5,948 nucleotides of DNA from the IMG/VR virus record IMGVR_UViG_2579778745_000009; one strand, given 5' to 3'. A program made the translations under genes and the position numbers. Position 1 is the first letter of the stretch. Every line of letters begins with the position of its first letter. The notes under the pieces were generated by a model. That model was not told the origin of the DNA. It saw nothing but the letters and a program-made list of their open reading frames with translations, and ran no database searches. Below, in pieces: positions 4,282 through 5,886 of this stretch. The DNA comes from a virus. Its lineage: Duplodnaviria > Heunggongvirae > Uroviricota > Caudoviricetes.

Positions 4282-4665
4282 ATGCGTGATATTCAGATGG
4301 TTCTTGAGCGTTGGGGAGCGTGGGCGGCTAATAATCATGAAGATGTGACCTGGTCGTCCATTGCCGCCGGTTTTAAGGGATTAATTCCTTCAAAAGTAAA
4401 ATCTCGCCCGCAATGTTGTGACGATGACGCGATGATCATTTGCGGGTGCATGGCCCGTCTGAAAAAGAACAACAGCGATTTGCACGATTTATTAGTAGAT
4501 TATTATGTAGTTGGTATGACATTCATGTCACTGGCAGGTAAGCATTGCTGCTCTGATGGTTATATCGGGAAAAGGTTACAGAAGGCTGAGGGCATAATTG
4601 AAGGGATGTTAATGGCATTAGATATCCGGTTAGAGATGGATATCGTTGTTAATAACTCTAATTAA
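4282..4665 (+). CDS. quuD: Late-gene antiterminator Q homolog
   Basis: 127-aa ORF from the ATG at 4282 with GGAG seven nt upstream. The track's TTG at 4267 is a less likely start. Cys-rich segments ([25 protein letters not shown]) are compatible with a zinc-binding Q-type antiterminator. Sits immediately after the nin genes, as Q does in lambdoid phages. Confidence 0.85.
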
Positions 4666-4687
4666 TACGCCAATTATTTACTAAAAG

Positions 4688-4716
4688 TTATTAAAAATGG
4701 GGCGTTGAAACGCCCC
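4688..4716 (-). terminator. Intrinsic terminator oriented for the minus strand (porin transcript)
   Basis: Stem GGGGCG (4699-4704) / CGCCCC (4711-4716) with loop TTGAAA. On the minus strand the stem is followed by AUUUUUAAUAA (complement of 4688-4698). On the plus strand it is followed by CAAAAATAAAGGG, with no U-tract. Confidence 0.4.
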
Positions 4717-4756
4717 CAAAAATAAAGGGTAATATATAACAGAAGGTTTGTATAGT

Positions 4757-4804
4757 TAGAAGCAAGGTTGTGCTTCTAAAGGAAGTGGCTTGAGGGAGCC
4801 ACTT
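4757..4804. repeat. Two tandem perfect 8-bp-stem hairpins
   Basis: TAGAAGCA (4757-4764) pairs with TGCTTCTA (4771-4778). AAGTGGCT (4783-4790) pairs with AGCCACTT (4797-4804). Neither is followed by a U-tract on either strand. Confidence 0.4.
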
Positions 4805-4845
4805 ATATGTTGGGGAGGCAAAGCCTCCCACAACATATCTTTTAG
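4805..4845 (+). terminator. Intrinsic terminator oriented for the plus strand (quuD side), possibly bidirectional
   Basis: About 15-bp stem ATATGTTGGGGAGGC (4805-4819) / GCCTCCC-A-CAACATAT (4823-4838) with one bulged A and a 3-nt loop, followed by CTTTTAG. It lies only 16 bp from the porin stop codon on the opposite strand. Confidence 0.5.
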
Positions 4846-4853
4846 TAATCAAA

Positions 4854-5886
4854 TTAGAACTGGTAAACCATACCTACAGCAACGATATCATCGGTAGCAA
4901 CGCCAGATGCTTTCGTGAAATCGCTCTTATCAATCAGGTTGATTTTGTAGTCAACAAAAGTGGACATATTTTTGTTGAAGTAATAGGTTGCACCTACATC
5001 AACATATTCAACCAGGTCCTGATCACCCCAAACACCCAAGTCTTTTCCTTTAGAATGCAGGTAAGCAACGGATGGACGCAGGCCGAAGTCGAACTGATAT
5101 TGTGCAACAGCTTCGAAGTTTTGTGCTTTGTTGGCAATATGGTTATTACCAAAAACAGTCATGTTCTGGGTTTCAGAATAGGTGGTGGCCAGATAGATGT
5201 TGTTCGCATCATATTTCAGACCAGCTGCCCATACTTCAGCATTTTGACCAGAAGCATTCAGACCGTTGTTACCGTAGATAACCTGATTATTAGTGCGATC
5301 AGATTTAGCATAGGTTGCACCTACACCGAATCCTTCATACTCATAAGTAGTGGAGAAACCGAAACCATCACCATTAGCTTCAGTTACGTCAGTGCGGTCA
5401 TTTTTACCCTGATACTGAGCAGCAAAGTTCAGACCATCAACCAGACCAAAGAAGTCGTTGTTACGATAAGTTGCAACACCAGTGGTGCGACCAGTCATGA
5501 ACACATCTGTTTGAGTCCAAGTGTCACCACCGAATTCTGGCAGGACGTCAGTCCACGCACCGATGTCGTATGCTACACCGTAGTTACGGCCGTAATCGAT
5601 GGAGCCGTAGTCACCGAATTTCAGGCCAGCGAAGGCAAGACGGGTTTTATCTTTGGAGGAACCTTGAGATTCAGCGCGGTTGCCTTTGAATTCATATTCC
5701 CACTGACCGAAACCAGTCAGTTGATCGTTGATTTGGGTTTCACCTTTGAAGCCAAGACGGGCATAAGTAGTATCACCATCATCTGCATCATTAGAGGAGA
5801 AGTAGTGCTTAGCATTAACTTTCCCGTACAGATCCAGCTTGTTACTGTCTTTATTATAAATTTCAGCTGCCTGAGCAGACATCGCC
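4854..5886 (-). pseudogene. nmpC: OmpC/PhoE/NmpC(Lc)-family outer-membrane porin, 5'-truncated by IS1 insertion inside the signal-peptide codons
   Basis: Minus-strand ORF translating to ...[29 protein letters not shown]...[12 protein letters not shown], with a typical porin C-terminal Phe and an intact stop at 4854-4856. The reading frame runs without a break into IS1 sequence at 5887, so the track's TTG start at 5900 lies inside IS1. Only the last ~6 signal-peptide residues remain; native promoter, ribosome-binding site, start codon and hydrophobic core are absent. Confidence 0.75.

Follow-up and report, generated by a model that had tools for sequence, protein, structure and literature searches.

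The segment between quuD and the porin gene of this DLP12-type prophage, at positions 4693 to 4853 of the window (the whole 5,948-nt stretch of DNA that was analyzed), is very probably the 3' untranslated region (UTR) and transcription stop of the porin gene on the minus strand, with the late promoter of the phage located elsewhere. The segment holds conserved stem-loops, it is linked to the porin gene, and the terminator at its far end is used in E. coli K-12. As such, it reads as an ordinary gene tail and terminator rather than as the promoter region of Q. The DNA immediately after Q in DLP12/PA-2-type prophages, which are in about half of the complete E. coli genomes, would then not be a late promoter region; the late promoter would have been moved 1.6 kb by insertion of the porin, and Q-driven transcription would not run antisense over the porin gene.

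The window is the right part of a DLP12-type lambdoid prophage, and 5948/5948 positions match the chromosome of E. coli Z1323CEC0003 (NZ_CP148493.1); its features are listed in Table 1. In comparison with the intact gene of PhiR70_1 (locus L002), the window porin has lost its promoter and about the first 14 codons. The annotation of the identical chromosome has an IS1A transposase beside the porin break, and IS1 is followed there by unrelated genes (an AraC-type gene, IS fragments) and then by ybhB/bioA (L293 6120-9641). The porin promoter, the block containing the late promoter PR', the lysis genes, and all that lies between them are gone from this chromosome, and because the PR' block is deleted beyond IS1, QuuD is there without its target promoter. 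Elsewhere in the window, a hairpin (GTCACCGGAG...CTCCGGTGAC) is located at 2643-2676 between ybcM and ybcN, and a K-12 plus-strand Term-seq 3' end, 572350, corresponds to window position 2676, directly after it.

Table 1. Coordinates of features in and around the quuD-porin spacer; positions are those of the window except in the last row.
Feature	Position	Strand	Details
Genes in window, in order			ybcK', ybcL, ybcM, ybcN, ninE, ybcO, rusA, ylcG, quuD, porin, IS1
quuD, Q-type late antiterminator, Q21-related Pfam family	4282-4665	+	PF06530, E = 8.5e-54
Junction segment	4642-4692		Last 8 quuD codons plus 27 nt; end of Q-family homology to start of porin-linked homology
Intrinsic terminator of porin transcript	4693-4716	-	Stem-loop 4699-4716 plus U-tract 4693-4698; expected 3' end 4693
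Hairpin 1 inverted repeat	4699-4716		8+8, 2-nt gap; -12.5 kcal/mol (plus strand)
A/U-rich stretch, porin 3' UTR	4717-4755	-	Unpaired in minus-strand fold
Hairpin 2, porin 3' UTR	4756-4779	-	9-bp stem (9+9), 6-nt loop; -9.7 kcal/mol (plus strand)
Hairpin 3, porin 3' UTR	4783-4804	-	8-bp stem (8+8), 6-nt loop; -12.4 kcal/mol (plus strand)
Hairpin 4	4805-4838		Outer 11-nt arms (91%) plus inner 7+7; -22.2 kcal/mol (plus strand)
Hairpin 4 plus plus-strand CTTTT (4839-4843)	4805-4843		First porin 3' UTR stem-loop on minus strand
Porin gene, nmpC/lc/OmpD type	4854-5885	-	Pfam Porin_1, E = 2.6e-152
IS1 left end, within porin signal-peptide codons	5886-5948		Departs from intact allele at 5886
PhiR70_1 PR' block	L002 6048-6135		-35 at 6048, -10 at 6070, inferred start at 6082, terminator 6106-6135, S at 6251

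All four of the inverted repeats that a sequence-only reading of this DNA had placed between quuD and the porin gene are present at those places, and the spacer as a whole is strongly structured on both strands relative to shuffled sequences (plus, z = -9.1; minus, z = -7.8; none of 200 shuffles folds as well). The quuD-adjacent hairpin with a minus-strand U-tract is real: on the minus strand, hairpin 1 has a 7-bp stem with six GC pairs, followed by ATTTTTAA, and it is called by a terminator scan. Hairpin 4, with a stem of 15 bp and one bulge, is a candidate terminator on the plus strand for transcripts leaving quuD. The porin-side terminator that had been proposed on that strand has a stable stem, but in the window allele this stem is followed by CTTTTAGT, with just four consecutive T residues, and the scanner made no call; K-12-type alleles carry CTTTTTCG at this place, versus CTTTTAG in the window allele. 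The crossed convergent layout is likewise as described, with predicted ends at about 4693 (minus strand) and 4843 (plus strand) and an overlap of about 150 nt.

The A/U-rich stretch between hairpins 1 and 2 is identical in E. coli alleles, E. albertii, and enterotoxigenic E. coli (ETEC) loci, and the alignment consensus draws within it a weak stem made only of A/U pairs and a short long-range one. Its core, AAACCTTCTGTTATATATTACC, shows no variation in any locus retrieved independently of the core, although invariance of 22 nt at 11% divergence would arise by chance with a probability of about 0.08 and is not significant alone. Searches of the whole window on either strand with the Rfam covariance models gave no match at E <= 1.

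The pattern of variation among 41 distinct alleles, including E. albertii, is consistent with paired stems, with 18 of 78 paired columns variable, versus 30 of 78 unpaired columns. The stem of hairpin 1 is conserved and its loop varies, and hairpin 4 of E. albertii has one compensatory change, in which the loop-closing C-G becomes U-A. In a common allele of hairpin 2, an A-U pair of the minus strand becomes G-U, which is A.C on the plus strand, and the outer pair of hairpin 3 in E. albertii is likewise G-U when read on the minus strand. Counted over the stem transitions, G-U pairing is kept in eight on the minus strand versus four on the plus strand, a difference that is not significant; the only frequent stem transition favors the minus strand.

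Published Term-seq data for K-12 place a transcript end at hairpin 1 in vivo. Minus-strand 3' ends at 574367/574366, reported for two growth conditions (PMC7815308, supplement 1), fall on or beside the final U of the hairpin-1 terminator (CCCCAUUUUU; K-12 version, GGGGCGUCUCAACGCCCCAUUUUU), at the U-tract in a spacer that is 95% identical to that of the window, with K-12 read counts close to the floor of the table for the minus strand. Just 3 nt beyond the base of hairpin 4 is a weaker minus-strand end, at 574476 (PMC7815308). A further minus-strand end, 574331 (approximately window position 4657), is bicyclomycin sensitive and therefore Rho dependent, and is located at the quuD stop, 36 nt past the porin terminator (PMC7815308, supplement 2), which means that some porin-side transcription enters quuD in the antisense direction. 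The K-12 porin gene is split by IS5, and the minus-strand RNA may therefore start either in IS5 or at the porin promoter (PMC11677980). Of the transcript ends that the sequence-only reading had predicted for the two strands, the minus-strand end at hairpin 1 is borne out by this mapping, whereas for the plus strand no end at hairpin 4 is listed in the tables for three growth conditions, in which quuD is perhaps untranscribed. The same tables list no plus-strand end at the PR'-proximal terminator either.

The spacer is closely associated with the porin gene. It is present in approximately 2500 of 5426 complete E. coli genomes, and all E. coli copies are between quuD and the porin, except for a few loci cut by insertion sequences or deletions. 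We considered a dispersed repeat element and rejected it, as the spacer is found a single time per prophage, in every case with quuD or the porin; copies that seem to be detached from Q or the porin reflect IS5, IS1, or IS200 insertions or deletions and are uninformative. At an E. albertii locus (L109), a porin gene with an 89% identical product precedes the whole series, from hairpin 4 through hairpins 3 and 2 and the unpaired stretch to hairpin 1 with its U-tract. The match breaks off at L002 4431, equivalent to window position 4690, and ycgN/ycgM come next with no Q gene present, which shows that all four hairpins stay with the porin when Q is lost. This locus is itself a remnant prophage that has a bor homologue on its upstream side, so the boundary at 4690 may be a deletion endpoint and not the limit of a functional unit. 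E. albertii also shares the promoter region upstream of the porin, and activity of the PnmpC promoter has been published (PMC11677980).

When the spacer was compared with the 3' flanks of chromosomal OmpD/OmpC-type porins from 80 species, matches came only from E. coli and E. albertii; the other species have just the final coding bases in common with it and a short tail with one terminator, and a chromosomal origin of the porin tail is therefore not demonstrated. In Citrobacter, Salmonella, Enterobacter, and others, the chromosomal OmpD orthologues end in about 25 nt of tail, whose one terminator is a single hairpin with A and T runs on its flanks, and they have no homology to the spacer, whereas the phage porin tail is about 160 nt long.

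Two minor features of the porin region were seen in PhiR70_1. A tandem direct repeat, TTATTTGTTG-G-TTATTTGTTG (L002 5957-5980), lies ~280 bp upstream of the start of the porin gene, leaving ~70 bp to the late-promoter block, and may be a regulator site for the porin promoter. Sigma-70-like sites are markedly depleted over the porin gene and its flanks, with none on either strand of the 1.9 kb at L002 4380-6300, versus 5.5 +/- 2.2 in shuffled sequences.

QuuD shares 79 to 82% identity with the Q proteins of Stx phages and 86% with that of ev087, and it is in these relatives that the late promoter of the family can be traced. Direct comparison with Q21 was tried as a route to the binding site and set aside, because QuuD matches the solved Q21 only distantly (E = 7.6e-8) and the Q21 binding site is thus not transferable. 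In Stx phages of strain Sakai, the PR' start was mapped by dRNA-seq and Term-seq to 258 nt upstream of the tR' 3' end (PMC7547250). In the equivalent Stx2 II sequence, the same distance upstream of the tR' U-tract puts this start at about L088 2957, 7 nt after TTTACG-16-TATCAT (2923-2950), which overlaps the Q stop and is the sole plus-strand promoter-like site that the scanner finds there. The PR' block in Stx phages has the form TTTACG..CGTAAAAA..TAT..T..TAAGAGTGGTTAC..CAC.CAG..AACCCGCCG....GCGGGTTTTT, and it is kept in DLP12-type phages, in which it lies between the porin start and the holin gene S. It is also present in K-12, 434B, PA-2, an ETEC prophage, and 79 of 80 IMG/VR loci encoding QuuD. 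In ev087, TTTACA-16-TATGAT is 1.9 kb past Q, behind a reverse-oriented lipocalin gene (blc) and a ybgA-like gene. The motif TTTAC[GA]NNCGTAAA (<=1 mismatch) is found in the DLP12-type, Stx, and ev087 loci, and TAAGAGTGGTTAC (<=2 mismatches) in the DLP12-type and Stx loci, and both are absent from the window, which has neither the -35 palindrome nor the initially transcribed block of this promoter. A signature for the late promoter of the QuuD family is TTTAC[GA]NNCGTAAAAA, then TATNNT, then TAAGAGTGGTTAC.

Several observations concern the promoter block itself. A perfect 14-bp palindrome spans the PR' -35 in DLP12-type phages (TTTACGTACGTAAA; blocks at L002 6048-6135 and, in K-12, L004 7762-7845), and it persists in Stx phages (TTTACGATCGTAAA; Stx2 II block at L088 2923-3005) despite a change of the two bases at its center; the ev087 counterpart is TTTACAATCGTAAA (block at L003 5278-5310). 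This palindrome is a candidate Q-binding element, unlike the direct repeat of Q21. A terminator-like hairpin with a T-run is ~25 to 50 nt past the Stx PR' start (L088 2980-3005; L002 6106-6135). The published Stx transcript StxS runs 258 nt, to a second terminator (PMC7547250); in DLP12-type phages, the first hairpin after PR' is the only terminator before holin S. The regulatory region of the DLP12 lysis cassette was cloned from the porin-S side (PMC7918800) with a forward primer equivalent to window 5864-5883; the reverse primer is without an exact K-12 match, and the published start site is anchored by the forward primer only. A sigma-E-like site, GAACTA-16-TCACT, is present in K-12 (L004 7400-7441, equivalent to L002 ~5685-5726), 121 nt from this forward primer, where the cited lysis-cassette start is expected. 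As it is ~350 bp upstream of the Q-type block, the lysis cassette may have two promoters.

Together, the spacer and the porin gene very likely constitute a moron situated between Q and the late promoter upon which Q acts. In Stx phages PR' is directly after Q, in ev087 blc and the ybgA-like gene are in between, and in DLP12-type phages the porin is; moreover, the porin gene has a terminator and a promoter of its own, the latter removed from the window by IS1. Phage morons, exemplified by lambda bor and lom and PA-2 lc, are accessory genes that bring their own promoter and terminator and sit between phage genes; here, a lysogenic-conversion porin gene in reverse orientation, with a terminator of its own, is between Q and PR', and the PA-2 lc region is 95% identical to the window over the spacer. 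It departs from other morons in its unusually long tail with three extra stem-loops, and in that its insertion also replaced the last Q codons.

Polymerase leaving the porin stop would make the stem-loops 4838-4805, 4804-4783, and 4779-4756, then the A/U-rich unpaired stretch 4755-4717, and would terminate at the GC-rich hairpin 4716-4699 followed by UUUUU, giving a 3' end at about 4693. The three upstream stem-loops may stabilize the message or hold processed 3' ends. On the opposite strand, hairpin 4 and its short U-tract would stop quuD transcription that is not antiterminated, and in doing so would shield the porin gene from antisense transcription. In intact phages, PR' and an early terminator lie beyond the porin start, in the part that is deleted in the window genome. 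Rho-independent terminators of convergent genes are a close parallel, as the spacer likewise has a GC-rich stem and a U-tract on each strand and its minus-strand 3' end maps at the U-tract, although it has two hairpins 90 nt apart in crossed order instead of one bidirectional hairpin. A point against this explanation is that the single-terminator orthologues do not account for why the porin has three extra hairpins.

The sequence-only reading had interpreted the spacer differently, as PR' with a Q-loading site (qut) and tR' in 4666-4853, giving a ~100-nt RNA like lambda 6S that would end at 4845, with Q-antiterminated readthrough running antisense over the porin. The spacer does resemble the lambdoid late cassette (Q, PR', pause elements, tR') in lying directly after the Q gene, which is where PR' is in lambda and Stx phages, and in having a strong plus-strand hairpin with a U-tract ~180 nt past the Q stop. 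The proposed elements, TTGAAA (4705-4710) and TAATAT (4730-4735), are also present, with the hairpin and short U-tract ~100 nt downstream, and TAATAT is unchanged among the alleles. However, they are 19 bp apart, outside the 16-18 range, and a promoter scan of 4666-4853 found no promoter-like site and did not return this pair. The proposed -35 coincides with the hairpin 1 loop, which is free to vary, with TTGAAA, TTGAGA, TTGCAA, TGGAAA, TAGAAA, and TGTCAA among the plus-strand alleles. The candidate promoter is thus weak and its -35 is not conserved, while the promoter block homologous to the mapped PR' of Stx phages is not in the spacer but beyond the porin, the side from which the DLP12 lysis-cassette promoter was cloned (PMC7918800). 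With PR' beyond the porin, Q-modified polymerase would not cross the porin gene antisense, and only early-operon transcription leaving quuD could do so.

A constitutive PR'-type promoter should also give a plus-strand end at hairpin 4, and its absence from the K-12 tables for three conditions disfavors the late-promoter model; no short plus-strand RNA end comparable to those of lambda 6S and Stx StxS is listed, an indirect comparison in that the published tables are for another strain (K-12). The spacer therefore fails on homology, on a conserved -35/-10 pair at 16-18 bp, and on a constitutive short transcript as features of a PR'-qut-tR' region, and the entire hairpin segment is kept in E. 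albertii without Q. The model of a late promoter within the spacer is largely refuted, and the chance that it is correct is very slight.

Two further explanations accept the porin tail as such but give it a function beyond termination, either as a stable Hfq-binding small RNA or through the ~150-nt antisense overlap with quuD, and we regard such an added function as improbable. The tail of the porin transcript resembles the module through which small RNAs bind Hfq. If cleaved within its A/U-rich stretch, it could release a regulatory RNA that ends in the hairpin-1 terminator, binds Hfq, and acts on other mRNAs, and the minus-strand layout of a U-rich run, GC hairpin, and U-tail (CCCUUUAUUUUU-hairpin-AUUUUU), preceded by a conserved unpaired segment, is similar to that of the 3' UTR-derived Hfq small RNAs CpxQ, SroC, and DapZ. 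No Rfam family matches. The invariance of the 22-nt unpaired core between E. coli and E. albertii, the length of the tail relative to the ~25 nt of chromosomal orthologues, and a stable minus-strand 3' end in K-12 in spite of its broken porin gene all point toward such an RNA, but there are only five U residues at the 3' end, conservation of the core at this divergence could be due to chance, and we found no publication linking nmpC to a 3' UTR small RNA. We consider a small RNA unlikely; only such a role would add anything new to a spacer that is otherwise an ordinary tail and terminator.

Alternatively, the complementary 3' ends of the quuD and porin transcripts could pair over ~150 nt, with double-strand RNA cleavage or transcriptional interference coupling porin shut-off to lytic entry, or damping Q in the lysogen. 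The crossed geometry is real and is conserved in thousands of E. coli genomes, and the Rho-dependent minus-strand end at the quuD stop shows antisense entry of some porin-side transcription into quuD. Yet the plus-strand partner has no transcript end listed at hairpin 4 in K-12, E. albertii retains the arrangement although it lacks quuD there, and 3' ends of convergent genes often overlap, usually with no demonstrated function, making this coupling quite improbable. Were either role true, a lysogenic-conversion gene would have a second function at the RNA level, linking the porin to host regulation or to the lytic switch.

The place at which the porin entered is also of note. The Q alleles of QuuD, Stx, and ev087 phages are alike as far as residue 120 (RLEMD; window 4641) and unrelated after it, suggesting that accessory DNA has been swapped in just after codon 120. 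This boundary is at window 4641/4642, at L003 3382 in ev087, and at about L088 2860 in Stx2 II, and what follows it is the porin, the blc lipocalin and ybgA-like genes, or the late promoter directly. From these sequence comparisons, the point after Q codon 120 looks like a recombination hot spot for accessory genes.
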